Source: Patescibacteria group bacterium (GTDB taxonomy: Bacteria; Patescibacteriota; Patescibacteriia; UBA10025; JAHIVO01). Taken from it: a DNA stretch of 38,879 nt. Position 1 is the first letter of the stretch. Every line of letters starts with the position of its first letter. The position numbers and the translations under genes were made by a program. Below, piece by piece: positions 897-38,653 of the stretch. The notes beneath the pieces were generated by a model that was not told the origin of the DNA, searched no databases, and worked only from the letters and a program-made list of their open reading frames with translations. The stretch lies in contig JAHIVO010000014.1 of NCBI GenBank assembly GCA_018816445.1, positions 1 through 38,879 of the forward strand. Reading direction: 5' to 3'.

Positions 897-927
897 ATAA
901 TAATTAATTAATAGGTTTTGAGCAGCC

Positions 928-949
928 ACCCTTCGGCTTTGCTCAGGGT
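928..949. repeat. Short REP-like element ACCCTTCGGCTTTGCTCAGGGT
   Basis: GC-rich island in an AT-rich spacer with ACCC/GGGT ends; imperfect CCAC/CTAC flanking repeat; resembles CCTTCG..GCTCAGG intergenic repeats (recalled, not searched). Confidence 0.5.
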
Positions 950-967
950 CTACGAGGATATAAAAAA

Positions 968-2920
968 ATGAGTAAGATTCTAGGAATTGACCTGGGTACA
1001 ACCAATTCAGCTATGGCCATTATTGAGGGCGGTGAACCCAAGGTATTGGAAAATAAAGAGGGTAACCGTACCACCCCTTCTATGGTGGCAATTTCCAAAA
1101 CAGGCGAACGCGTGGTTGGCCAGATTGCCAAGCGCCAGGCCGTGACTAATCCTGAAAATACAATTTTTTCCGTTAAGAGGTTAATCGGCCGCCGCTGGGG
1201 TGACGAAGAAGTACAGCGTGATGTAAAAACCATGTCGTATAAAATAGTCCAGGCGGGCGAAGGCATTAAAGTAAAAATGGACGGCAAAGAAAACACGCCG
1301 CAGGAAATTTCTGCCATGATTCTGCAGAAAATGAAAGCAGATGCCGAGGAAAAGCTGGGCGAAAAGATTGAAGAAGCGGTTATTACTGTACCGGCTTATT
1401 TTGACGATTCACAGCGCCAGGCTACCAAAGACGCCGGTGAAATTGCCGGCTTAAAAGTCAAGCGTATTATAAACGAACCGACGGCTGCAGCTTTGGCCTA
1501 TGGCTTTGAAAAGAAAAAGAACCAGCAGATTGCTGTTTATGACCTGGGCGGCGGTACTTTTGATATCTCCATTCTGGATGTAGCTACGGATACTGTTGAG
1601 GTTAAATCAACCAACGGCGATACCCATTTGGGCGGCGATGATTTTGACAAGCGGATTATTGACTGGCTGATTGACGAATTCAAGAAAGACCAGGGTATTG
1701 ACTTATCAAAAGACCAGATGGCTCTCCAGCGCCTGAAAGAAGCGGCTGAAAAAGCTAAAGTTGAATTATCAACTTCCCAGGAAACTGATATTAATCTGCC
1801 GTTTGTTACTTCAGATGCAAACGGCCCCAAACACATGAATTTGAAATTATCCAGGGCCAAACTTGAAGATTTGGTCGGCGATTTGATAGAAAAAACCATG
1901 GAGCCGGTTAACAAAGCGCTGGAAGATGCCAACCTGAAAACTTCTGAAATTGAAGAGGTTATTATGGTCGGCGGTATGACCCGTATGCCTAAGGTATTAG
2001 AAACAGTAGAAAAATTCTTTAATAAGAAACCAAACATTAGCGTTAATCCTGATGAAGTGGTAGCTATGGGCGCGGCTGTGCAAGCCGGCGTTTTGCAGGG
2101 TGATGTTAAAGATGTATTGCTATTGGATGTCACTCCGTTAACACTAGGCATTGAAACATTAGGCAGTGTGTCTACTCCGTTGATTGAAAAGAATACTACC
2201 ATCCCAACTTCCAAATCACAGATATTTTCAACTGCCGCTGATAACCAGACTACGGTTGAGATCCACGTACTGCAGGGTGAACGGCCAATGGCTGGGGATA
2301 ACAAGACTTTAGGCAAGTTCATGCTCTCCGGTATTCCACCGGCACCGCGCGGCGTACCTCAGGTTGAAGTATCATTTGATATTGACGCTAACGGAATTCT
2401 AAATGTAAAAGCTCAAGATAAAGCTACGGGCAAAGAACAATCAATTACCATTACTGCATCTTCGGGTTTATCCAAGGATGAAGTAGAAAAAATGAAGCAG
2501 GATGCTAAAGTGCATGAAGCTGAAGACCTGAAAAAGAAAGAAGTAATTGACATTCGCAATAATGCTGAGTCATTGGTCTTTACCGCAGAAAAGGCTCTGA
2601 AAGATGCTGGCAAAAAGGTTGATGATAAGACTAAAAAAGAAATTGAAGATAAGATCAAGGCAGTTAAAGACGTTAAAGATAAAGATGACGCTGAAGCTAT
2701 TAAAAAAGCAACAGAAGAATTGTCTCAAGCTATTCAGAAAATTGGCCAAGCTATGTATAAAGATCAAGGACAATCCGGAGCACAACCTGGTGCTGAAGGT
2801 AAGCCAGAAGATAAAGCTAAGGACGCAAAGGATAAAGGACCGGTAGATGCTGAATATGAGGATGTGAAGAAAGATGGGGATAAATCCGCCCAAGGCGGAT
2901 CCGCCTCGGGCGGAAAATAA
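968..2920 (+). CDS. dnaK: Molecular chaperone DnaK (Hsp70)
   Basis: [51 protein letters not shown]; DAEYEDV near the C-terminus. Confidence 0.99.
2885..2914. repeat. Tandem palindromic micro-insertion inside the dnaK 3' end (TCCGCC-NNN-GGCGGA x2)
   Basis: TCCGCC caa GGCGGA + TCCGCC tcg GGCGGA, flanked by AAAT (2882-2885 and 2915-2918); encodes [10 protein letters not shown] in frame. Confidence 0.8.
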
Positions 2921-2932
2921 CTTTTAAATAAA

Positions 2933-2971
2933 CCACAGGCCTCCCTTCGGGGGGTCTTGTGGGGTGTTTTT
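2933..2971 (+). terminator. Intrinsic terminator after dnaK
   Basis: CCACAGGCCTCCC-TTCG-GGGGGTCTTGTGG hairpin followed by GGTGTTTTT. Confidence 0.75.
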
Positions 2972-2980
2972 GATAAAAAT

Positions 2981-3144
2981 TGCGCCGCAATCGCAAATAC
3001 AACCCTAGGAGCAGCCCTCTGCGGCTGCGACTGGATATTAACCGGCGAGCACGGGCAGAGACCCGCCCGACTGCCTCCGGCATCGGAGGCGGGCGCGGCG
3101 CCCACGCTCGGAGTCGGGGAACGAGCAACGCAGAAGCAAGTACT
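2981..3144 (-). repeat. Structured repeat, copy 1 (carries a 37-nt hairpin insert at 3063-3099)
   Basis: Aligns by eye with 3631-3763; hairpins GCAGCC/GGCTGC and CGAGC..GGGC/GCCC..GCTCG, helix GACT/AGTC, closing helix 2981-2988/3125-3132. Confidence 0.85.
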
Positions 3145-3165
3145 ACAATAGGTAAATATAAAATT

Positions 3166-3648
3166 ATGATAAAAAAACACGCAGAAAAAATTAGTCAGGT
3201 GGAACTAGAGGAAAAAGCTATGCAGGCCGGTAATTCCTGGCACCATCATTGTTTACCAGTAAATTGTTTTACCAATGACACTGGTGAAGAAGTTATTGTT
3301 TTAGAAGCAGGAAATGATACTTTTTATTGTGAGACCACTAAAGAGCTGAAAAAAAAGCTGGAGGAGCACGCTTATCAATTAACTCACCCCCGAAAAGTAA
3401 AAGGCCGACATCCTAAGCACGAAGCCCTGGATAAAATTAAAGAATATGTTAAAGATGGTGTTAAGTGGCATTTTCATATCGCCATGCCGCACTGCCTGCT
3501 GAGCATGGGGGATAAATATGTGCTCATCCTTGAAAACGACGAAACGAAACAAATCCAGCAATGGGAATTTGATGAAAAACCGGTAGCGCTCGTGCGGGCA
3601 ATTGATGATAATTATTTGGGGAGAAAAAAAGTAGCACCGCCATTGTAA
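3166..3648 (+). CDS. Hypothetical protein with a duplicated WHxH-x4-C motif
   Basis: ATG at 3166 is in frame with track ORF 2980..3648; halves WHHHCLPVNC..VIVLE and WHFHIAMPHC..VLILE. Confidence 0.8.
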   Translation: MIKKHAEKISQVELEEKAMQAGNSWHHHCLPVNCFTNDTGEEVIVLEAGNDTFYCETTKELKKKLEEHAYQLTHPRKVKGRHPKHEALDKIKEYVKDGVKWHFHIAMPHCLLSMGDKYVLILENDETKQIQQWEFDEKPVALVRAIDDNYLGRKKVAPPL

Positions 3649-3763
3649 ATACCACTACAGGAGCAGGCCTCTGTGCCTGCGACTGAGTATTAACCAGGCG
3701 AGCGCGGGCAGAGACGCCCACGCTCGGAATCGGGGAATAGGCGGCGCGGAAATAGATTGTACT
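3631..3763 (-). repeat. Structured repeat, copy 2 (overlaps the last codons and stop of 3166..3648)
   Basis: GCAGGC-CTCTGT-GCCTGC, CGAGCG-C-GGGC-AGAGAC-GCCC-A-CGCTCG, closing helix 3634-3641/3740-3747. Confidence 0.85.
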
Positions 3764-3770
3764 TAAAAAT

Positions 3771-3807
3771 AAGAAAAACCCTAACTACTGGGAGATAGCT
3801 AGGGTTT
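3771..3807 (-). terminator. Intrinsic terminator of ORF 3831..4112
   Basis: Minus strand AAACCCTAGCTA-loop-TAGTTAGGGTTT followed by TTCTT. Confidence 0.7.
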
Positions 3808-3830
3808 CAAAGGTAGGTACGCATTTGGGA

Positions 3831-4112
3831 TTAGTCCTCCGGCAGTTTAAGCGCTTTTTTCATCGGGGCCATCTCTGGTCCACGTACCAGAATTAGTGTT
3901 TGCCCTCCAGCCTCTAGTTTGGTGATTCTGGCAACTTCGTCTGCTCTTGAAAGGATTACTTTACCCTCATTAACATCACTTGATGTAATAACTACAGATC
4001 CTTCTTCAGTTTGAAGAACAATAGAGCCGTCTTCAGTACCCTGACTCCAGGTAGCGAAATTTAGACCACTGATAGCCGGCAGATCGGCAACCGGAATTTT
4101 CTTTTCAATCAT
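3831..4112 (-). CDS. Orphan hypothetical protein (93 aa)
   Basis: SD AGGAGGG (4119-4125), own promoter and terminator; no recognisable motif. Confidence 0.7.
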   Translation of the reverse strand: MIEKKIPVADLPAISGLNFATWSQGTEDGSIVLQTEEGSVVITSSDVNEGKVILSRADEVARITKLEAGGQTLILVRGPEMAPMKKALKLPED

Positions 4113-4142
4113 ACAGCACCCTCCTTCCTTGGGTATTTACTA

Positions 4143-4171
4143 ATGATAATTTAAGATAAGGATATTGTCAA
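4143..4171 (-). promoter_or_regulatory. Sigma70-type promoter TTGACA-N17-TATCAT
   Basis: Near-consensus hexamers with 17-nt spacing upstream of 4112. Confidence 0.65.
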
Positions 4172-4244
4172 AATTTGAATGCAGAGGTGTGTTAATTTAT
4201 TAAAAAATAAGCTATATTAAATAGTATTAGAAAGGAATAAATTT

Positions 4245-4547
4245 ATGAATGGACAGCCAGATCAACAAAAAATAAACATTAAAATTGATGACGCCACCTT
4301 TAAAGGCGTGCATGCCAATGCCATGGGCGTATCGCATAATAAAGAAGAGTTTGTATTGGACTTTATGAATATTTATGCATGGCAAAGGTCAGGTATAGTA
4401 ACAGCCAGGGTTATTACTTCACCCGGCCATATCAAGAGGATATATAGGGCTTTGGAAGACAACCTGAAAAAATATGAGCAGAAATTTGGTAAGATTGAAG
4501 AAGCCAAGGCGCCCTCAGATCAGGATATGGGTTTTAAAACCGCATAA
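4245..4547 (+). CDS. DUF3467-like protein
   Basis: GVHANAMGVSHNKEEFVLDF...ARVITSPGHIKRIYRALEDNLKKYEQKFGKI resembles the DUF3467 pattern. Confidence 0.75.
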   Translation: MNGQPDQQKINIKIDDATFKGVHANAMGVSHNKEEFVLDFMNIYAWQRSGIVTARVITSPGHIKRIYRALEDNLKKYEQKFGKIEEAKAPSDQDMGFKTA

Positions 4548-4578
4548 AAAAAACCGTTCCTTCCATGGAAACGGTTTT
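4546..4578. terminator. Bidirectional terminator between convergent genes
   Basis: A-run + AAAACCGTT...AACGGTTTT hairpin. Confidence 0.75.
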
Positions 4579-4580
4579 AG

Positions 4581-4802
4581 CTATACTGGCAGAGCGTCTA
4601 CTTTTTTGAAGTATTTTCTTGCCTCGCTCATATCAAATGAGCGGCCGCTGCCGGATTCGCTTCTGATAAAGACTTTTGGGCCGTGACCGTAATTATGAGG
4701 ATCAGCCGAATACGTAGATCCGACAACATAGTCGCCTGGATGGCCAGGAACTTGATTAGTACATTCAAGATCGCATGGACCAGTAAGATTGATAAAGGAC
4801 AT
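4581..4802 (-). CDS. Orphan hypothetical protein (73 aa)
   Basis: SD GGAGGT (4807-4812); promoter-like TTGACT-N16-TATTAT (4834-4861); ends at a terminator. Confidence 0.65.
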   Translation of the reverse strand: MSFINLTGPCDLECTNQVPGHPGDYVVGSTYSADPHNYGHGPKVFIRSESGSGRSFDMSEARKYFKKVDALPV

Positions 4803-4876
4803 ATTTACCTCCGAAAAATGTGATGCCTAACGAATAATATCATATATTAAATCAAAGTCAATAGCAGAATAGTTTT

Positions 4877-5914
4877 ATGAGAGTTGAAAAAAAGAAAGAA
4901 CAACCAAGGCCGGAAAAATTCATTCCAGAGCAGCCAATAGGCAAGGTAGTTATTTTAATCGCTTTGACTGTGGCCAGTTCTGCGCTTTTTTGGCTGGCCT
5001 GGAATAATATTTTAACTAACGGCATTGACTGGGGCGCAGGCACCTCAAATATCCTGACAGTAGTATCAACCCTGCTGGCTTTTTGTTTAATGTTTTCGTT
5101 ACTGGCCATTTCTGAAGTGCTGATAACAAAAAAAGTTTATTTGCTGTTAATGGCCGTAGTGGCGGCTGGCACGGTGTTTATTTTTTTTATACCTTCATTA
5201 TGGAGTTTTATTGGATTCATACTGGTAGCACTGTCATTTCTTTACTGGCGTCGGGAAGTGAGGATTGACATTGAGACCCGGTCTAAATTTTTACCACACA
5301 GGACCATTGGCGCCGGCCTGAAATTTGCCGTCACATTGCTGTTATTAGCCATCTGCCTGATTTATTACAGCTTCATGGTCTGCGGCAAAGACGCCGGCGG
5401 CCGTTTATTGGACACTGCGGTTAATACTGGCACGCAAACAGTTAATAAGGTACTGAAATTCTATTATAAGGATAAATATCATTCGGATCAGGAGCTTGAT
5501 GAGTTTATTATCAGTATCAGCGGACTGGAACAAGCTAGGCTGGAATTTGAAACCGGTTTCTCAGAAATTGACTCTGCCATTACCGAGGGCATATCCAGCG
5601 CACAGGATGAGGTTGTAGCTGAAGCCAGGAATGATCTTCTGGCCACTTTTGATATTACAGCTGAAGGCAATGAAACCATGGATAATGTCATCCGCCGCAT
5701 CGTGGAAAAAAATGTGGATAAATACGTTAATCCATATAAAGAATTAATCCCCGCGCTTATTGCCCTGGCCTTATTTTTTACCCTTAATATTTTCAGTTTT
5801 ATATACCGTGAGCTGATAAAATCATTTGGCTATTTAATATTCCATATCCTCATCTGGCTGAAATTTATTAAAGTTAAAAAAGTAATGGTAGAAGCGGAGA
5901 AAATCACTTTATAA
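4877..5914 (+). CDS. Multi-pass membrane protein of unknown function
   Basis: About 5 N-terminal hydrophobic helices, an acidic soluble domain, and C-terminal TM segments; 5 nt before dnaJ. Confidence 0.8.
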   Translation: MRVEKKKEQPRPEKFIPEQPIGKVVILIALTVASSALFWLAWNNILTNGIDWGAGTSNILTVVSTLLAFCLMFSLLAISEVLITKKVYLLLMAVVAAGTVFIFFIPSLWSFIGFILVALSFLYWRREVRIDIETRSKFLPHRTIGAGLKFAVTLLLLAICLIYYSFMVCGKDAGGRLLDTAVNTGTQTVNKVLKFYYKDKYHSDQELDEFIISISGLEQARLEFETGFSEIDSAITEGISSAQDEVVAEARNDLLATFDITAEGNETMDNVIRRIVEKNVDKYVNPYKELIPALIALALFFTLNIFSFIYRELIKSFGYLIFHILIWLKFIKVKKVMVEAEKITL

Positions 5915-5919
5915 CCCTT

Positions 5920-7029
5920 ATGGCAAAAAATTATTATAATATTTTAGGGGTATCTAAAAATGCCACCCAGGATGAGATAAAAAAGGCTTTTCGAAAATTA
6001 GCCCACCAATGTCATCCGGACAAAAAAGGCGGCGATGAGGCTAAGTTCAAGGAAGTTAACGAGGCTTACCAGGCGTTAGGCAATCCGGAAAAAAGAAAAC
6101 AATATGACCAGTTCGGCCAGACCTTTGGGCAGGGAGCCAGGCCAGGCGGTTTTGGCGGTATGAACTGGGAAGATTTTGCTAGGGCTTCTGGCGGAGGCGG
6201 GCAAAGCCAGCAGAGTGCAAATTTTGATTTTGGGGATTTGGGCGACATGTTCGGTGATTTATTCGGCTTTGGTCGTTCAGGTGGTGCGCGACGTACCCGC
6301 CGTTCAACTCGTGGAAATGACATTCAGGCAGAGATGGCCATTGATTTTCGTGAAGCCGCTTTTGGCACAGAAAAATTTATTGATTTGTACAAACAAAATA
6401 CCTGTTCAAAATGTTCGGGTAATGGTGCAGAGCCGGGCACCAAGATTGATATTTGCCCGACCTGCCAGGGCAGCGGCCAGGTGCAACAGGTTCAGCGCAC
6501 CATACTGGGTTCGTTCCAGTCTGTGGGCATATGTCCTGAGTGCCATGGTGAAGGTAAAAAAGCCACAAAAAAATGCAGGCATTGCGGTGGAGACGGACGC
6601 ATTAAAGAGAATGAAAAATTTAAAGTAAAAATCCCGGCTGGCATCAATAACGGTGAAACAATCCGCTTAGCTTATAAGGGCGAAGCCGGAGCTAGGGGAG
6701 GCCAGGCTGGTGATTTATTCATCACCATGAAAGTAAAGCAGGATCCTGAATTTAAACGCGACGATGATAATATACTTTCCGAGGTTGATGTAAGTTTTTC
6801 TCAGGCAGCTCTAGGCGATAAAATTTCAGTAAATACATTAGACGGCGAGATAAAGCTGAAAATTCCCAGCGGCACGCAATCCGGCAAATTATTCAAACTT
6901 AAGGAAAAGGGCGTTCCACATTTGCGATCCAGAGGCAGGGGAGACCATTTAGTAACGGTAAATGTAATTACTCCGGATAATTTAACAAAGCAACAGAAAA
7001 AATTATTTGAGGAATTGGCTAATACATAG
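5920..7029 (+). CDS. dnaJ: Chaperone DnaJ
   Basis: J-domain with HPD, G/F-rich region, four CxxCxGxG repeats, C-terminal domain. Confidence 0.98.
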   Translation: MAKNYYNILGVSKNATQDEIKKAFRKLAHQCHPDKKGGDEAKFKEVNEAYQALGNPEKRKQYDQFGQTFGQGARPGGFGGMNWEDFARASGGGGQSQQSANFDFGDLGDMFGDLFGFGRSGGARRTRRSTRGNDIQAEMAIDFREAAFGTEKFIDLYKQNTCSKCSGNGAEPGTKIDICPTCQGSGQVQQVQRTILGSFQSVGICPECHGEGKKATKKCRHCGGDGRIKENEKFKVKIPAGINNGETIRLAYKGEAGARGGQAGDLFITMKVKQDPEFKRDDDNILSEVDVSFSQAALGDKISVNTLDGEIKLKIPSGTQSGKLFKLKEKGVPHLRSRGRGDHLVTVNVITPDNLTKQQKKLFEELANT

Positions 7030-7110
7030 CGTTAAATTCATGTGTATTTGATTTTTTGTTGATTTTGTGCTATACTGTATTTGCTAAAAAATACTTAATA
7101 AACAAAAATC

Positions 7111-7722
7111 ATGTTTCCAGTTGCATTAGCCGCTGAAACTGCAGAGGCAGCGGCTGAATCAGCAAATTTTTTACAGCATGTTGACTGGACCAGGCCTACC
7201 TGGGATCTTTTTATAGTTTTATTTTTTATCGTTGCTGCGTTTTTATACGGCTTATCATTAGGCAGGGACAGGATAATTATAATTTTGGTCAGCATTTACA
7301 TGTCGCTGGCCATTGTTGAACATGCACCAATCGTAAATAATGAGGGCTTTCAGAACATGATAAATAATATCGCTGGCCAGTTTTTTGTGTTCCAGATTTC
7401 TGCTTTTTTAGTCTTGTTTGTTGTATTCTTTTTTATAATTACACGCAGTGCGCTTGTTAAAACCATAGCCTCTTCAGATTTACCTGGCCCTTGGTGGCAG
7501 GTGCTGCTGTACAGTATTTTACACGTTGGTTTGATTGTCAGCATTGTTTTATCATACATACCAAAAGAATCAGTTGAGGGCGTGCTGGCCCCGTTAACCC
7601 AGCGCGTATTTACCACTGATTTTGCCCAGAACGTTTGGATTATAGGTCCGCTCCTGGCTATGTTTATATTTAAGGGTGGCGCTTCACAGAAAAAGACGCG
7701 TAAGGTAATAGAGGAGGAGTAA
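7111..7722 (+). CDS. Membrane protein, possibly CvpA-like
   Basis: About 5 TM helices; DLFIVLFF...YGLSLG resembles the CvpA start; upstream TG-C-TATACT extended -10. Confidence 0.6.
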   Translation: MFPVALAAETAEAAAESANFLQHVDWTRPTWDLFIVLFFIVAAFLYGLSLGRDRIIIILVSIYMSLAIVEHAPIVNNEGFQNMINNIAGQFFVFQISAFLVLFVVFFFIITRSALVKTIASSDLPGPWWQVLLYSILHVGLIVSIVLSYIPKESVEGVLAPLTQRVFTTDFAQNVWIIGPLLAMFIFKGGASQKKTRKVIEEE

Positions 7723-7724
7723 AT

Positions 7725-7815
7725 TAGTTAATAGTCAATAGTTTATAGTATATAGTTAACAGGAACAGGCCTCTGCGTCTGCCCCGTAGTACGGGGCCTG
7801 CGACTAAGTTTTTTT
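7725..7815 (+). repeat. Composite element: 5x TAGTNWA heptamers + truncated structured-repeat hairpin + CCCCGTAGTACGGGG insert + T7
   Basis: Closely similar to 36984-37067; core AGGAxCAGGxCTCTG...CCTGCGACT shared with the repeats at ~3008 and ~3659. Confidence 0.85.
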
Positions 7816-7844
7816 GTCCTCCGATTCACGAATATTTTTTTGTA

Positions 7845-7887
7845 TTGACAATATTAGTATTTGTGGTAAGTTTATTTAAATAAACTT
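7845..7887 (+). promoter_or_regulatory. Promoter TTGACA...TGG-TAAGTT overlapped by a perfect 20-bp palindrome
   Basis: TTGACA 7845-7850; AAGTTTATTTAAATAAACTT at 7868-7887 is its own reverse complement. Confidence 0.55.
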
Positions 7888-7907
7888 GATCATTTCAAGG
7901 AGGGAGT

Positions 7908-8225
7908 ATGACTCCAAGTGAGGTAAGTGAAAAGATTGCAAAAATAATGCGAGCCATGATTCATGGCCGCGCTACAAAGTCATTTGAGAATGATGGAGAA
8001 GAAAGGCAATTGTTCCGGGCAGTAGTTAGCCTGCATTCACTACTCCTGGAAAGGTTTGGCCCCAATCCGAGTGATGTTAGGGAAGCTCAAAGTGTTGATA
8101 AGGGCATAGTATCCGGGATACTTGATGGCATCAAAGCGCTGATGTCCAAAGTTGTATACCTTGACGAATCATTACTCTTGTCCGGTGTCACAGCTGGTTG
8201 GTTCTATGACTTTGAGGACCTTTGA
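7908..8225 (+). CDS. Orphan hypothetical protein (105 aa)
   Basis: SD AAGGAGG just upstream; own promoter and terminator. Confidence 0.7.
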   Translation: MTPSEVSEKIAKIMRAMIHGRATKSFENDGEERQLFRAVVSLHSLLLERFGPNPSDVREAQSVDKGIVSGILDGIKALMSKVVYLDESLLLSGVTAGWFYDFEDL

Positions 8226-8240
8226 TCCATAAGCAGAAAC

Positions 8241-8273
8241 AAAAAAGCCTACCTTTTATAGGCAGGCTTTTTT
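8241..8273. terminator. Bidirectional terminator
   Basis: AAAAAAGCCTACCT-tttat-AGGCAGGCTTTTTT between convergent ORFs. Confidence 0.8.
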
Positions 8274-8288
8274 CTTATGTTTAGGTTT

Positions 8289-9638
8289 TTATAATGAAGG
8301 TGTTGCGGGTTCCATATTTACACCTGGTGGTGTGCATTGAATGCCACCGCCGACTTTATGGCAGCACTCGTTATTATTTCTGCACCAGTAACCGTCTGGG
8401 CAGACACCGCCGCCGCAGCCGTTGGGATTAGCGTTACAGGGGATCTGGTTCTGCAGCAACATGTCTGTGTAAGGATGGCCGTTATTATCATAAAAGACTA
8501 CAAACCAGTCGCCAGGTTCTAAAACCTGTTCAGGCAGACAAAGCTTCTTAATCCCATCCATAGTGGTTACATTCAGGTCCATGGTTGCTAATGTTTTAGT
8601 TTCTTCATTAATACTGCTATTTCCCCCCAACACAAACAATGGAGCGGCATGTGAAACCGGATCAGATTCATGAGGGATAAATCCTTCAGCTGAATTATAA
8701 AATCCAAGTACGTGATTCCAGCTTTTTGCAAATACTAAGTAAGTTAAAAGGCCTAAATCAACTGTTTTGCTAGAAGTAATATTTGATATTAGGATGGGAT
8801 CAAAATTATTAGCTACCATGTCCTGGCAATCTGTTTCATTGGCTCGCTGGGTTAAGTTTGCATCATAATATGAATTGCCTTCTTCATCAATAAAATACGT
8901 ATTTTGTCCTCCTTCACAGCCAGGCCAATCATATTGATACTGCCAAAAACCGCCTACGCACAAGAAGCAACCATTAATATCTCCATCTGTGCAAAGATCA
9001 ACTTGGGCATGGGTTGTTTTGATGCCTAAAATTGGATTATTTTGTTCTGGTATCTGTCTTTCTGTAGGAAGATGGGTAACGCTGTTACTGTTTTTTTCTG
9101 GAATACATATAACCTGTTTGTCTGGAATAATTACTTGCGCATCAGCTGTTGGAATACCAAGTATTGGTTGGCGGTAATTGGATTTACTTACAGGTTGAGC
9201 GGGGGGGATAATAACATCAGTAGTTTGTAAGGTGATGTACATTGCAGGGTGAGTAACAGCTTGCACATTAATAGCTAGAGGCAGTTCTTCATCTGCTGTA
9301 TCACCATCATCAAATCCTCCGCCATATTGCGGGAATATACCAAAAAGAAGAGATTCATCAACTGATTGTAAATTTATATCACCTGAATCAAGGATTTCAC
9401 CTGACTGCGGGGGATTAAAACTAATATCAGCACTCATTACATCAACAAAGGCCATAGCATCCGGCGTTGGGGGAGTATAATTGCTGCTTTCTGCCGGCGT
9501 TGTAGAAGTTTTTATGTTTGGCAGCATAAATAAAATAGCCATCCCAGTTAGGAAGGCTCCAATCATTAGTACTGATACATAAATACCTGTTTTAGTTTTT
9601 ACTTCAACTTTTTGGGATGGGACTTGGTTGTTTTCCAT
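8289..9638 (-). CDS. Membrane-anchored, Cys-rich extracellular protein
   Basis: N-terminal TM after EVKTKT; internal repeats; Cys-rich C-terminus; promoter TTGACA-N17-TAATAT at 9709-9737. Confidence 0.8.
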   Translation of the reverse strand: MENNQVPSQKVEVKTKTGIYVSVLMIGAFLTGMAILFMLPNIKTSTTPAESSNYTPPTPDAMAFVDVMSADISFNPPQSGEILDSGDINLQSVDESLLFGIFPQYGGGFDDGDTADEELPLAINVQAVTHPAMYITLQTTDVIIPPAQPVSKSNYRQPILGIPTADAQVIIPDKQVICIPEKNSNSVTHLPTERQIPEQNNPILGIKTTHAQVDLCTDGDINGCFLCVGGFWQYQYDWPGCEGGQNTYFIDEEGNSYYDANLTQRANETDCQDMVANNFDPILISNITSSKTVDLGLLTYLVFAKSWNHVLGFYNSAEGFIPHESDPVSHAAPLFVLGGNSSINEETKTLATMDLNVTTMDGIKKLCLPEQVLEPGDWFVVFYDNNGHPYTDMLLQNQIPCNANPNGCGGGVCPDGYWCRNNNECCHKVGGGIQCTPPGVNMEPATPSL

Positions 9639-35455: not shown

Positions 35456-36981
35456 AGGATATAATCTACGTCCTTGATTTTGGTTCTCAATATTCACATT
35501 TAATTACCCGGCGCATCAGAGAGTTGGGTATTTTTGCCGAGCTAGTTCCGGTTAATTACCCGATTAATAAATTAACGCAGGCTAAGGGTATAATTTTATC
35601 CGGGGGGCCGCGTGATATTTCTAAAAAAGACACTCTACTGGTTGGCAGGGGCCTTTTTAGTTTAGGCGTACCTATTTTAGGCATTTGCTATGGTATGCAG
35701 TTAATGGCGCACATGTTCGGCGGCAAGGTGGCCTTAGGTAAAAAACGTGAGTATGGACCGGTTGAGATTAAAATATTAAAAAGGGGCCATTTGCTTGCTG
35801 GCCTGAAAACAAAACAGCAGACCTGGATGTCGCATCGCGACCAGGTTGTGAAACTGCCCAGAGGTTTTTCAGTGCTGGCTAGCTCAAAAAACTGCCGTTA
35901 TAGCGCCATTGCCAATGAGAAAATTGGCATTTATGGCTTGCAGTTTCATCCAGAAGTGGTGCATACAGTAAATGGCATGAAAATATTAAAAAACTTCGTT
36001 AACTTAACTCAGGCTAAGTGCTCTTGGTCTATGCGAGATTTTGTTGATAATGCTATTAAAGATATTAAACAAAAAGTTGGCCAGGAAAAGGTGGTTTGCG
36101 CCTTATCCGGGGGAGTGGATTCATCCGTGGCCGCTACGATTGTTAATAAAGCTATTGGCCGGCAATTAACCTGCATCTATGTTGATACTGGATTGATGCG
36201 CCAGGGAGAAACTGAGCAGGTTAAAAAAACATTTCTATCATACCAGCGAGCTAATCTAAAAGTGATTAATGCCAAAAAGCAATTCCTAGAAGAGTTAAAG
36301 AATGTAACTGATCCGGAAAAAAAGCGAAAGATTATTGGAAATTTATTTATCAGAATTTTTGAAAAAGAAGCCAAGAAAATTGGCGGGGTAAAATGGCTAG
36401 TCCAAGGAACCCTATATACAGACGCCATTACTTCTGGCGTGAGCGTGGGTAAAACCGCCGCAGTAATAAAATCCCACCACAATGTGGGCGGCCTGCCAAA
36501 AAAATTCGGTTTTAAATTAATTGAGCCTTTCAGGGGATTATATAAAGATGAAGTGCGTAAAGTCGGCCGCTTATTAGGGTTGCCCAAAGAAGTAACAGAG
36601 CGACAGCCGTTTCCCGGTCCGGGTTTAGCCGTGCGCATTATCGGCGAGGTAACAGAGGAGAGGCTGGATATTGTGCGCCAAGCAGACTGGATTGCCAGGG
36701 AGGAGATTGAAAAAGCGAGCTGGGCGAATAAAGCACAGCAGTACTTTACAGTTTTGCCGAGCATCAGGTCGGTTGGTGTGCAGGGTGACTCGCGTACTTA
36801 TGGTTATCCGATTATTGTCCGCGCGGTAACTACCAGAGATTTTATGACAGCAGACTGGGCGCGCTTGCCGCATAATTTATTAGCTACCATTTCAGCCAGG
36901 ATAACCAATGAAGTAAAAGAAGTTAACAGGGTAATTTATGACATTACTTCCAAGCCGCCGGGGACAGTTGAGTGGGAGTAG
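35452..36981 (+). CDS. guaA: GMP synthase (glutamine-hydrolysing)
   Basis: LDFGSQY, GICYGMQ, QFHPEV, SGGVDS, IKSHHNVGGLP, PFPGPGL, KPPGTVEWE. Confidence 0.98.
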   Translation: MKDIIYVLDFGSQYSHLITRRIRELGIFAELVPVNYPINKLTQAKGIILSGGPRDISKKDTLLVGRGLFSLGVPILGICYGMQLMAHMFGGKVALGKKREYGPVEIKILKRGHLLAGLKTKQQTWMSHRDQVVKLPRGFSVLASSKNCRYSAIANEKIGIYGLQFHPEVVHTVNGMKILKNFVNLTQAKCSWSMRDFVDNAIKDIKQKVGQEKVVCALSGGVDSSVAATIVNKAIGRQLTCIYVDTGLMRQGETEQVKKTFLSYQRANLKVINAKKQFLEELKNVTDPEKKRKIIGNLFIRIFEKEAKKIGGVKWLVQGTLYTDAITSGVSVGKTAAVIKSHHNVGGLPKKFGFKLIEPFRGLYKDEVRKVGRLLGLPKEVTERQPFPGPGLAVRIIGEVTEERLDIVRQADWIAREEIEKASWANKAQQYFTVLPSIRSVGVQGDSRTYGYPIIVRAVTTRDFMTADWARLPHNLLATISARITNEVKEVNRVIYDITSKPPGTVEWE

Positions 36982-36983
36982 GT

Positions 36984-37067
36984 TGGTTTATAGTAAATAG
37001 TTTATGGTTTATAGGAGCAGGTCTCTGTGCCTGCCCCGTAGTACGGGGCCTGCGACTAGTTTTTTTT
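36984..37067 (+). repeat. Composite element: 4x TRGTWWA heptamers + truncated structured-repeat hairpin + CCCCGTAGTACGGGG insert + T8
   Basis: Second copy of 7725-7815; insert 37034-37048 flanked by a CCTG direct repeat. Confidence 0.85.
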
Positions 37068-37162: not shown

Positions 37163-38653
37163 ATGTCTAAAGTCTCAAAAAAGATGACTCGGATTTACTC
37201 TAGATTAGAGAAAATCCTGTTACCATTTAAGACACTGGTCATAATCGGCTCCTATTGGGGAGACGAAGGCAAAGGCAAGATCATTGATTTGGTGGCGCCG
37301 TTCTATGATGCTGTTGCCCGATTTAGCGGAGGAGCTGGCGCTGGGCATACCCTGATAACCGAGCTGTTAAGGAAATTCATCGGTCATTTAATCCCTTGCG
37401 GGGTGGCGCATAAAATTATGTGTTTCCTGGCCAGGGGAGAATTCTTTGACCTAGCCAGGTTCATTGCCGAGAAAGCGGATGCTTTCCGGGCTATGGACGG
37501 TAAACTACCGCCGATCAGGATTGACCGGCAATCGCCTTTGTGGACACCATGGCACCCGATTTACGAATCGTACATTGAGTACGTCATGGGCAAGAAGAAG
37601 GTTCGGACTACTGGAAAAGCAATCGGTATTTTATCTGGTTTTGCGAAATTGCGTATCAGTTTGCTGGTTGGTCATTTGTTCATGGATGAGAAGGACCTTC
37701 GGGCTTTATTGAGGATTTTGTATAAAGTCTGCAAGCCTAACTTTGATCAGATGATAGAGGAAGGCATTATCCGCAAGAGGGATGTACCTGGTCCGGACAA
37801 GGTAGCTAAGTATCTACTCAAGATGGCCCCTGAAATCAAGGATGATGTTATTGACACATCATGGGCACTTTCCAATCTGTGGAAAAGAGGTAAGCGTATT
37901 CTGTTAGAGGGTGCGCAAGCCATCGGTCTTGATCCGCAGTGGGGTACCTACCCTTATGTAACCTCAGGAAATTGTACTGCAGCTGGTGCTGCGCTTGGTA
38001 CTGGTCTGCCACCTGAAGCGACAACAAATATTATGGCAGTATTTAAAATTCTGCCTACACGTGTTGGAGCTGGTCCGTTTCCCTCAGAAGTGTGGGATCG
38101 TGACAAAGCAGAACGGTGGGCTGAAAAGCATCCGGAGCTGTTTGAAGAAGGCAGAACGCGTAACAGGTTCCTTGAGAAGAAGCTTGCTAAGATAAATGCT
38201 GGCACAGCAACTCCTGCCGAACTTTGTCAGTACTTCATGGTCTTGGGTGATGAGCGCGGTGCAACAACCGGCCGTGGACGCAGTATCGGTTTACCGGATC
38301 TGCAGTGGTTGCGTTATATGATCCGCATAAACAAGCCGAAGTTCCTGGCACTGACGCGTTTTGACATGCTCTCGGGCGTTCGGTCAATTCAGGTTGTCAC
38401 AGGCTACAAACTTGACGGCCGCAGACTAAAACCTGACGAAATGCCGGAACCTTGGAGACTTGGTGAAGTTGAGGTTATCACTCAGACATGGCGTTGCTGG
38501 TCAGAAGATATTTCCGGCTGTGATTCATTCGATGAATTGCCGGAAGGTGCACAAAGATTCATCAAGAGATTGGAAAAAGCTCTTGGTGTGCCGATCGTAC
38601 TGGTTGGTACTGGTGCAGAGCGTGATGCTGTTATTGTCCGTCCAACAGCCTAA
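37163..38653 (+). CDS. purA: Divergent adenylosuccinate synthetase
   Basis: WGDEGKGK, GAGHT, EGAQ, GTYPYVTS, TRVGAGPFP, GATTGR; SD AGGAGG at 37150-37155. Confidence 0.88.
   Translation: MSKVSKKMTRIYSRLEKILLPFKTLVIIGSYWGDEGKGKIIDLVAPFYDAVARFSGGAGAGHTLITELLRKFIGHLIPCGVAHKIMCFLARGEFFDLARFIAEKADAFRAMDGKLPPIRIDRQSPLWTPWHPIYESYIEYVMGKKKVRTTGKAIGILSGFAKLRISLLVGHLFMDEKDLRALLRILYKVCKPNFDQMIEEGIIRKRDVPGPDKVAKYLLKMAPEIKDDVIDTSWALSNLWKRGKRILLEGAQAIGLDPQWGTYPYVTSGNCTAAGAALGTGLPPEATTNIMAVFKILPTRVGAGPFPSEVWDRDKAERWAEKHPELFEEGRTRNRFLEKKLAKINAGTATPAELCQYFMVLGDERGATTGRGRSIGLPDLQWLRYMIRINKPKFLALTRFDMLSGVRSIQVVTGYKLDGRRLKPDEMPEPWRLGEVEVITQTWRCWSEDISGCDSFDELPEGAQRFIKRLEKALGVPIVLVGTGAERDAVIVRPTA

Follow-up and report, generated by a model that had tools for sequence, protein, structure and literature searches.

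The hairpin copies and their flanking genes

The DNA analysed here, referred to below as the window, is a stretch of 38,879 nt that corresponds to contig C16 of assembly G000 (1.34 Mb, 39% G+C, 97 contigs, 92% complete), which was obtained from an ultra-small groundwater bacterium of a small-genome Patescibacteria lineage. Two hairpin modules of the window are the main subject of this analysis. The module designated copy B (site B) starts 32 nt after the stop codon of guaA (36979-36981), with purA as the next gene at 37163. For the module designated copy C (site C) the distance is 39 nt, counted from the stop codon of ORF 7111-7722, and the next ORF is 7908-8225. Both are "filled", that is, they carry a block of extra bases that is absent from the "empty" copies of the same hairpin, named P2; one empty copy lies in a complete two-hairpin repeat in the same window. 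The positions of these features are summarized in Table 1. The intergenic stretches 36983-37012 and 7723-7760 consist of tandem heptamer-type spacers (ATAGTTT / ATGGTTW). About 40 further intergenic sites of the genome have such spacers, and GC hairpin pairs are found inside some of the heptamer arrays (C93:36909, C77:32630 and C31).

Table 1. Hairpin repeats of the P2/P3 family and the parts of the filled copies (positions without a contig name are those of the window)
Feature	Position	Strand	Sequence or remark
Complete doublet	2977-3136	+	Downstream of dnaK; P3 bears a 37-nt insertion
Complete inverted doublet	3629-3753	+	Outer stem P1; empty P2 at 3659-3685; P3 at 3700-3725
Empty P2 copy	3659-3685	+	AGGA-GCAGGC-CTCTGT-GCCTGC-GACTG
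Filled copy C (site C)	7761-7815	+	AGGA-ACAGGC-CTCTGC-GTCTGC; palindrome 7782-7796; GCCTGC 7796-7801; GACTAAG; T7
Filled copy B (site B)	37013-37058, with T-run to 37068	+	AGGA-GCAGGT-CTCTGT-GCCTGC-CCCGTAGTACGGGGCCTGC-GACTA
Copy B, P2-type REP-like hairpin	37013-37034	+	One mismatch to the 18-nt P2 consensus
Copy B, parts of the hairpin		+	Tag AGGA; 5' arm GCAGGT 37017-37022; loop CTCTGT; 3' arm GCCTGC 37029-37034
Copy B, 15-nt GC-rich palindrome CCCCGTAGTACGGGG	37034-37048	+	17 nt with the flanking G and C (37033-37049)
Copy B, 19-nt extra block CCCGTAGTACGGGGCCTGC	37035-37053	+	Absent from empty P2 copies; right-justified placement
Copy B, tail	37054-37067	+	GACTAG, then T8
Complete doublets elsewhere in G000	C45:4344-4468; C59:14884-15005; C77:31475-31599

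Comparison of the filled with the empty copies showed that B and C contain an identical set of 19 extra bases, composed of the palindrome and a second copy of the 3' arm of the P2 hairpin, and these 19 nt are the net difference in length between the two states. In copy B the last six bases of the block (GCCTGC, 37048-37053) repeat the 3' arm, and the palindrome is bounded by CCTG on both sides (37030-37033 and 37049-37052); in copy C the flanks are TCTG and CCTG. The direct repeat at the insert can be read as 4 nt (CCTG), 5 nt (CCTGC) or 6 nt (GCCTGC), its length being ambiguous because of the palindrome's own ends, and at site C the first copy of the 6-nt repeat is GTCTGC. The exact 15-mer occurs twice in the window, against 0.01 occurrences expected from shuffled sequences.

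A preliminary description of this DNA had proposed that a palindrome is inserted into a structured hairpin repeat next to a short flanking repeat, and the sequences at 37013-37058, 7761-7806 and 3659-3685 read as proposed. It had also specified a duplication of 4 bp (possibly 5 bp) and an empty allele in the same window. A direct repeat does flank the insert, within the 4-6 nt range of readings given above; the empty copy is likewise present, but it is a paralogue inside a complete two-hairpin repeat and not an allele of B or C.

The P2/P3 doublet

A genome search with the 18-nt hairpin yielded eight good P2 copies on five contigs, all of them intergenic. The consensus, about 28 nt long with its tags, reads AGGA-GCAGGC-CUCUGU-GCCUGC-GACUG. 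Five of the eight copies sit in a unit of about 125 nt, represented twice in the window and once each on C45, C59 and C77 (Table 1), in which the outer stem P1 encloses the hairpins P2 and P3 (GAGCGCGGGC-AGAGAC-GCCCACGCTC). P3 aligns to the reverse complement of P2, as an inverted relative that forms the right half of the doublet, and its loop is complementary to the loop of P2. Each doublet is identical to its own reverse complement at 62-79 of 115-125 nt, which is above the shuffled sequences, and a covariance model of the doublet scores on the opposite strand too. The copy on C47 has kept P2 and the bases after it without P3, and copies B and C have kept P2 only. P3-type copies and single hairpins also occur in the genome.

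The covariance model was searched in 17 genomes of the family (G000 and 16 others), and the doublet was found in seven of the 16 others. These relatives show covariation in the stems. Their P2 and P3 loops have changed yet stay complementary, as in the pairs CCGCUGU/ACGGCGG of G010 and CGUUG/CAGCG of G004. No family in Rfam matched the repeat at the gathering score, nor at E values up to 10 or 1, tRNAs excepted. A riboswitch reading of the doublets was rejected, since the copies are followed by mutually unrelated genes; by their N-terminal sequences, we take these genes to resemble YchF, TrmD and a pseudouridine synthase, besides orphans. Several doublet copies precede terminators. Judged by its sequence and arrangement, the P2/P3 unit of this Patescibacteria genome is REP/REPIN-like, with its two hairpins in inverted orientation.

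Direction of the 19-nt change

The six other P2 copies in G000 are all empty, the 3' arm being followed directly by GAC, and so are the five clean P2 copies found in four other genera (two in G004 and one each in G006, G008 and G013). About 15 doublets in seven relatives were inspected, none of which has extra bases in P2 or P3, and no filled P2 copy was found in the relatives searched. Because all 11 other clean P2 copies are empty, this comparison indicates that the empty state is ancestral and that the filled state was derived from it by insertion.

Traits common to copies B and C

Copies B and C resemble each other outside the insert as well. Both read GACTA after the second arm, whereas the other six P2 copies read GACTG; both end in a T-run (T8 and T7, respectively), lack P1 and P3, and have a heptamer-type spacer abutting AGGA. 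Only these two combine the 19-nt insert with all of these traits, and the filled state is thus found in 2/2 copies in the shared context versus 0/6 others. They are in the same orientation on one contig, 29 kb apart, and are 82% identical over about 150 nt. Because of the derived traits common to both outside the insert, B and C are best read as sister copies of one filled progenitor that was copied once, which is the simplest account. A P2-only terminator copy lacking the insert did not turn up, which leaves the filled progenitor hypothetical.

The divergence between B and C is unequal along the module: 4 of 22 positions differ in the P2 part, and 0 of 24 in the inserted block with GACTA (one-sided Fisher test, p = 0.045). 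Against the consensus, the P2 parts of B and C share no substitution, and the number of mismatches in the 18-nt hairpin is three in C as compared with the one in B. Simple co-descent would predict equal divergence of the P2 part and the insert, and the observed figures are against it. Our explanation is selection that keeps the palindrome perfect, the P2 of C being predicted to fold at only -5.2 kcal/mol when the insert is left out, or else gene conversion; a younger insertion would account for them too.

To place the two sites in their genomic history, the orthologous spacers can be consulted. Neither P2 nor the palindrome is present in the post-guaA spacers of seven other genera, or in the spacers after the homologue of ORF 7111 in three metagenome relatives (75-85% amino acid identity); several of these spacers hold ordinary terminators instead. 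Since the orthologous spacers lack both elements, the whole module is a lineage-specific newcomer at both sites, and the relatives' spacers, being without the whole module, did not include a true orthologous empty site. Contigs of runs X2 and X3 (groundwater, from another study) showed no indel over site C and both doublets: they cover 6051-8381 and 6714-8159 without difference, and 923-3176 and 3155-5048 without gaps. This comparison of polymorphism has little power because the strains of X2 and X3 are nearly clonal with the window.

Occurrence of the palindrome elsewhere

In the whole genome the exact 15-mer is confined to copies B and C. One loop variant, with A in the centre, is found at C48:53005; it has no flanking repeat and lies in a tRNA-linked hairpin array between the flanks CTTG and CTTC. 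Among 400 other genomes of the class, CCCCGTANTACGGGG occurs once each in two, in unrelated contexts, one match being a plain terminator and the other the tip of a longer hairpin upstream of a transketolase-like ORF. A similar hairpin lies upstream of an ORF resembling transketolase in G018. The hairpins at C48:53005 and in G018 were considered as donors of the insert and set aside, their flank likeness being too short to score. A search of the species representatives of all prokaryotes yielded the 17-mer GCCCCGTAGTACGGGGC 46 times, scattered over many phyla; a T-run adjoins 13 of them and a 4-nt flanking repeat only one. It appears to be a generic stable hairpin that unrelated bacteria have reached independently as a terminator hairpin. 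An origin of the palindrome by fold-back synthesis is unlikely, because inspection by eye showed that its arms do not match the flanking sequence.

The preliminary description had further suggested that one mechanism may insert several unrelated short hairpins, and had pointed to a genome-wide search for GC-rich palindromes flanked by 4-bp direct repeats. We counted 4-bp direct repeats at the ends of GC-rich hairpins, allowing 0-2 nt of overlap, and obtained 7 of 271 hairpins versus 3-8 in 11 shifted controls; there is no enrichment, and a narrower set of hairpins agreed. The arrangement CCTG-hairpin-CCTG occurs three times, within the range of 0-5 given by nine control tags. Nor was the palindrome found at several unrelated sites, as an element of the MITE or SDR type would be: both of its copies occupy one and the same position within the host repeat. 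The suggestion of a common mechanism is therefore not supported, the 15-mer not being dispersed and flanking repeats not being enriched. Genes for HUH, GIY-YIG and reverse transcriptase proteins, named as candidates for such a mechanism, are all present in the genome; for the ten GIY-YIG matches and the single reverse transcriptase match, no link to the palindrome was seen.

A second nested insertion and the hairpins at the end of dnaK

The doublet behind dnaK contains another nested sequence, a 37-nt GC-rich hairpin inserted in P3 at 3063-3099. CGCCC is repeated at both ends of it, at 3064-3068 and 3099-3103, with two extra bases. Part of this insert, CGACTGCC, is found again in the C59 copy, after P2. 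Insertions are thus present in 3/8 copies in G000 versus 0 of about 15 in relatives, a count that is suggestive but small, B and C not being independent of each other.

The preliminary description had mentioned a 4-bp duplication at dnaK for comparison, by which the insertion at 3063-3099 may be meant, or else a double hairpin at 2885-2914. The latter is situated in the last codons of dnaK and is translated; it is a tandem pair of 15-nt hairpins, TCCGCCnnnGGCGGA twice, joined at GATC. At this place relative 005 carries a pair that is decayed, G004 carries one copy, and eight other relatives have none. The double hairpin is also dispersed in G000 (C41, C59 and C93) and in G003, G004, G008 and G013.

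The filled copies as predicted terminators

Copies B and C each present a stable GC hairpin followed by the T-run downstream of a gene, and a simple terminator scan lists a terminator-like site at both. The predicted stability of the hairpin is -24.0 kcal/mol with the 19 nt and -12.0 kcal/mol without them at site B, and -17.3 and -5.2 kcal/mol, respectively, at site C. The best folds of the two copies differ: that of B with the insert is one long imperfect hairpin, and in that of C the flanking repeat lengthens the stem of the palindrome. The filled copies hold two 3' arms, either of which can pair with the 5' arm. The start of the U-tract is 5-6 nt away from the outermost predicted pair. Given the distance from the stop codons, the U-tracts, the predicted gain in stability and the scan sites, we read the filled modules behind guaA and ORF 7111-7722 as putative REP-derived terminators of the intrinsic kind, or as stabilisers of the 3' end. 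Downstream of site B a promoter-like sequence, TTGACT-18-TAAGGT, can be read; it is absent from the list of the scan tool, and two relatives have TTGACC or TTGACT, then TAAGGT, at the equivalent position.

RAYT-type genes and other hairpin repeats of the genome

The genome contains seven matches to Y1_Tnp (PF01797). Three Y1 proteins were scanned with the NCBIfam RAYT model (cut-off 80 bits); the C7 protein passes with 106 bits, and the protein of C48:7129-7656 reaches 78 bits in two stretches. The latter RAYT-like ORF, on the minus strand, contains in frame a P3-like (7437-7462) and a P2-like (7394-7411) sequence just after the HUH motif, and P2/P3-family copies are found inside this ORF with none in its flanks. 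An overlap of the same kind is seen at G010:C3:48174-48379, where a Y1 match and a match to the doublet model overlap. In G000 the P2/P3 family was not found on the flanks of any RAYT gene. The RAYT-type genes C7:3166-3842 and C88:5395-6082 have other hairpin doublets on both sides, whose loops are complementary (ACAAGT/ACTTGT and ACTTTAGT/ACTAAAGT) and whose families have 3-7 matches each in the genome, both strands counted.

ORF 3166-3648, situated between the two doublets of the window, encodes 160 amino acids in two similar halves (WHHHC... and WHFH...PHC). It matches no Pfam family and no NCBIfam family significantly, and as no family was found there is no sign that it is the enzyme of the repeat. 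In G004 (C17) a P2 hairpin precedes its homologue. In run X1, a contig with the depth of the organism itself (114.9) connects 2917 directly with 3658, without the 740 nt that comprise the first doublet and this ORF; the shorter side of the junction is only 26 nt, and the junction may be a repeat artefact.

Another hairpin, CCGTCATnCGACGG, has ten matches in G000, two of them on opposite strands of C84 (sites at C5:4554-5208, C12:18598, C48:27969 and 52965, C84:6594-6625, C93:11256 and C40:5541). Several copies lie inside or beside tRNA-like sequence, e.g. between GGTTCG and AATCC of a T-loop-like stretch, and three are within about 110 nt of small stand-alone GIY-YIG genes.

Discussion

Taken together, the results are consistent with the following account, to which we assign a probability of roughly 0.55. 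P2 is normally the left half, and P3 the right half, of a quasi-palindromic REPIN-type doublet. Once in the lineage of this bacterium, 19 bp would have been inserted at the 3' arm of a P2 copy without P3, in the form of a GC palindrome of 13-15 nt and a second copy of the arm GCCTGC. The resulting compound hairpin, with its U-tract, would act as a Rho-independent terminator or 3'-end stabiliser, and this filled variant, copied from a single old insertion, would now stand behind guaA and ORF 7111-7722. The copied or mobile unit would then be the filled REP variant of about 55 nt rather than the 15-mer, and the genome's RAYT-type enzymes or recombination might have copied it. As to the first 19 bp, our guess is that they arose by microhomology-mediated template switching that returned at the arm; an event caused by a Y1 enzyme is a possible alternative.

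Several other explanations have to be weighed against this account. That one gene-conversion patch spread the block is doubtful, and it is the strongest of the rivals: two P2 singlets would have existed, the block would have arisen in one of them, and short-patch conversion would have moved it to the other, or would homogenise the 3' blocks of the two. The unequal divergence of 0/24 versus 4/22 is what such conversion would leave, and the two sites are on one contig in the same orientation; against this, no P2-only terminator copy without the block survives as a recipient state, and a conversion tract of some 40 nt between homologies of 6 nt would in our judgement be unusual. The same unequal divergence, and the direct repeat around the insert, could also speak for a mobile 15-nt hairpin, with a 4-nt duplication or cleavage-site repeat, which entered two P2 copies independently and site-specifically through a Y1/HUH (RAYT or IS200-type) enzyme or through a process that also nests other hairpins. 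The Y1_Tnp matches with one clear RAYT would supply the agent, insertion of the IS200/IS605 type beside a fixed tetranucleotide could mimic a 4-nt repeat, and the doublet behind dnaK has, in its P3, another nested GC hairpin of different sequence (37 nt), with CGCCC repeated. We nevertheless consider this unlikely, as the two copies share one special context (GACTA, T-run and loss of P3), 0/6 other P2 targets are filled, the two class matches are in unrelated contexts, the 46 prokaryote-wide matches are scattered across phyla with a 4-nt repeat in one, neither the 271 GC hairpins nor the CCTG tag shows enrichment of flanking repeats, and the repeat around 3063-3099 is imprecise. The case for a mobile 15-mer, and for a general hairpin-inserting activity, is weak. 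Even less can be said for the case that the preliminary description had named against insertion, i.e. an ancestral filled form from which slippage between two CCTG(C) repeats deleted the block: direct repeats of 4-6 nt around 13-15 nt are a classical substrate of slippage, but many identical deletions would be required to produce 11 clean empty copies (six here and five in four genera), the outgroup P2 copies are all empty and no relative searched has a filled one. We regard it as the least probable of all.

Two further readings are broader. The doublets might be genes of structured small RNAs with kissing loops, the filled copies being terminators that resemble the hairpin by convergence; the covarying stems, the loops that stay complementary while changing in G010 and G004, and the terminators after several copies would agree with this. 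It is very improbable, as B and C match P2 over 22 nt and GACT, tag and loop included, with only one and three mismatches, the complementarity of the loops follows from the inverted-repeat nature of the doublet, and the downstream genes are unrelated. With no more confidence than for the mobile 15-mer, and surely as a speculation, one may think of a process of this lineage that places new GC hairpins next to the 3' arm of a REP-type hairpin, with duplication of the arm. It would have acted at least twice in one small repeat family (19 nt in P2 and 37 nt in P3), and could consist in template switching at stalled hairpins or in cleavage and rejoining by RAYT-type Y1 enzymes. Were it true, inert REP singlets would be turned into terminators, and the 15-nt palindrome with 4 nt would be the smallest unit known to be so inserted. 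Were the 15-mer itself mobile, the mobile unit would be smaller than any described and would offer a testable substrate for RAYT-like genes.

If instead a single insertion followed by copying of the filled variant is the right account, a selfish-looking palindromic repeat of the REP type has been remodelled into a predicted terminator in a genome of about 1.3 Mb, and the case adds to the evidence of REP/RAYT-like systems in Patescibacteria. The finding is real but modest, a structural variant of a REP-like repeat that most likely goes back to one old event; no new mechanism is opened by it, as a general hairpin-inserting activity has weak evidence in its favour.

Comparison with known systems

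Among known systems, the host repeat is closest to the REP/BIME/REPIN sequences. In the portions of the literature consulted, REPs are short imperfect palindromes (about 20-40 bp) that are dispersed, mostly extragenic and often just downstream of genes, and P2 agrees with this in size and location. REPINs are two REP hairpins in inverted arrangement, with single REPs as remnants (Bertels & Rainey 2011, PMC3116915), and here 5/8 P2 copies are paired with an inverted P3, in doublets foldable into a larger hairpin, beside single hairpins. REPs nested in other small palindromes, REPs in frame within genes and a role in termination have been described (Di Nocera et al. 2013, PMC3733652), REPs being thought to act in termination or mRNA stabilisation; the REP GTAG or CGTC super-families have an unpaired tag at one end (PMC3733652). 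The portions consulted of PMC3116915 and PMC3733652 hold no case of a foreign 15-nt palindrome inside a REP with a duplicated arm. Like genomes with REP/BIME sequences, G000 encodes Y1/HUH RAYT-type proteins. The differences are that eight P2 copies and five doublets are present in this 92% complete genome, versus hundreds of classical REPs; that the tags are AGGA and GACTG in P2 and CGA and TCG in P3 instead of GTAG or CGTC, GTAG being found only within the nested palindrome; and that, unlike in a REPtron, the P2- and P3-like hairpins are found inside a RAYT-like ORF instead of flanking a RAYT gene. No paper was found in the literature on REP/RAYT-type repeats or palindrome insertions in Patescibacteria.

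The IS200/IS605 elements, with the miniature hairpin-bearing forms derived from them, also invite comparison. Their Y1/HUH enzymes recognise DNA hairpins and cut at a short adjoining sequence, and the elements make no target duplication and have distinct left- and right-end hairpins. G000 encodes Y1/HUH enzymes too, but no dispersal of the palindrome is seen here, and to our knowledge a 15-nt unit is far smaller than any described member. The small dispersed repeats (SDR) of Nostoc and its relatives are reportedly structured repeats of 21-27 nt, nested in each other and in tandem heptamers, and are said to have been proposed to be mobile. The filled copies are similar to them in abutting heptamer-type spacers, and unlike them in that SDR have many copies and contexts, whereas the palindrome is present as two sister copies, without insertions at independent sites, and in that the host is a Patescibacterium and not a cyanobacterium.

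The filled modules finally resemble intrinsic terminators, in that a GC hairpin is followed by a U-tract a few tens of nucleotides after a stop codon and lies ahead of the promoter-like site of the next gene. They depart from the usual form in the offset of the U-tract from the outermost predicted pair, and in the hairpin itself, which is a compound of a REP-derived stem and a nested palindrome.
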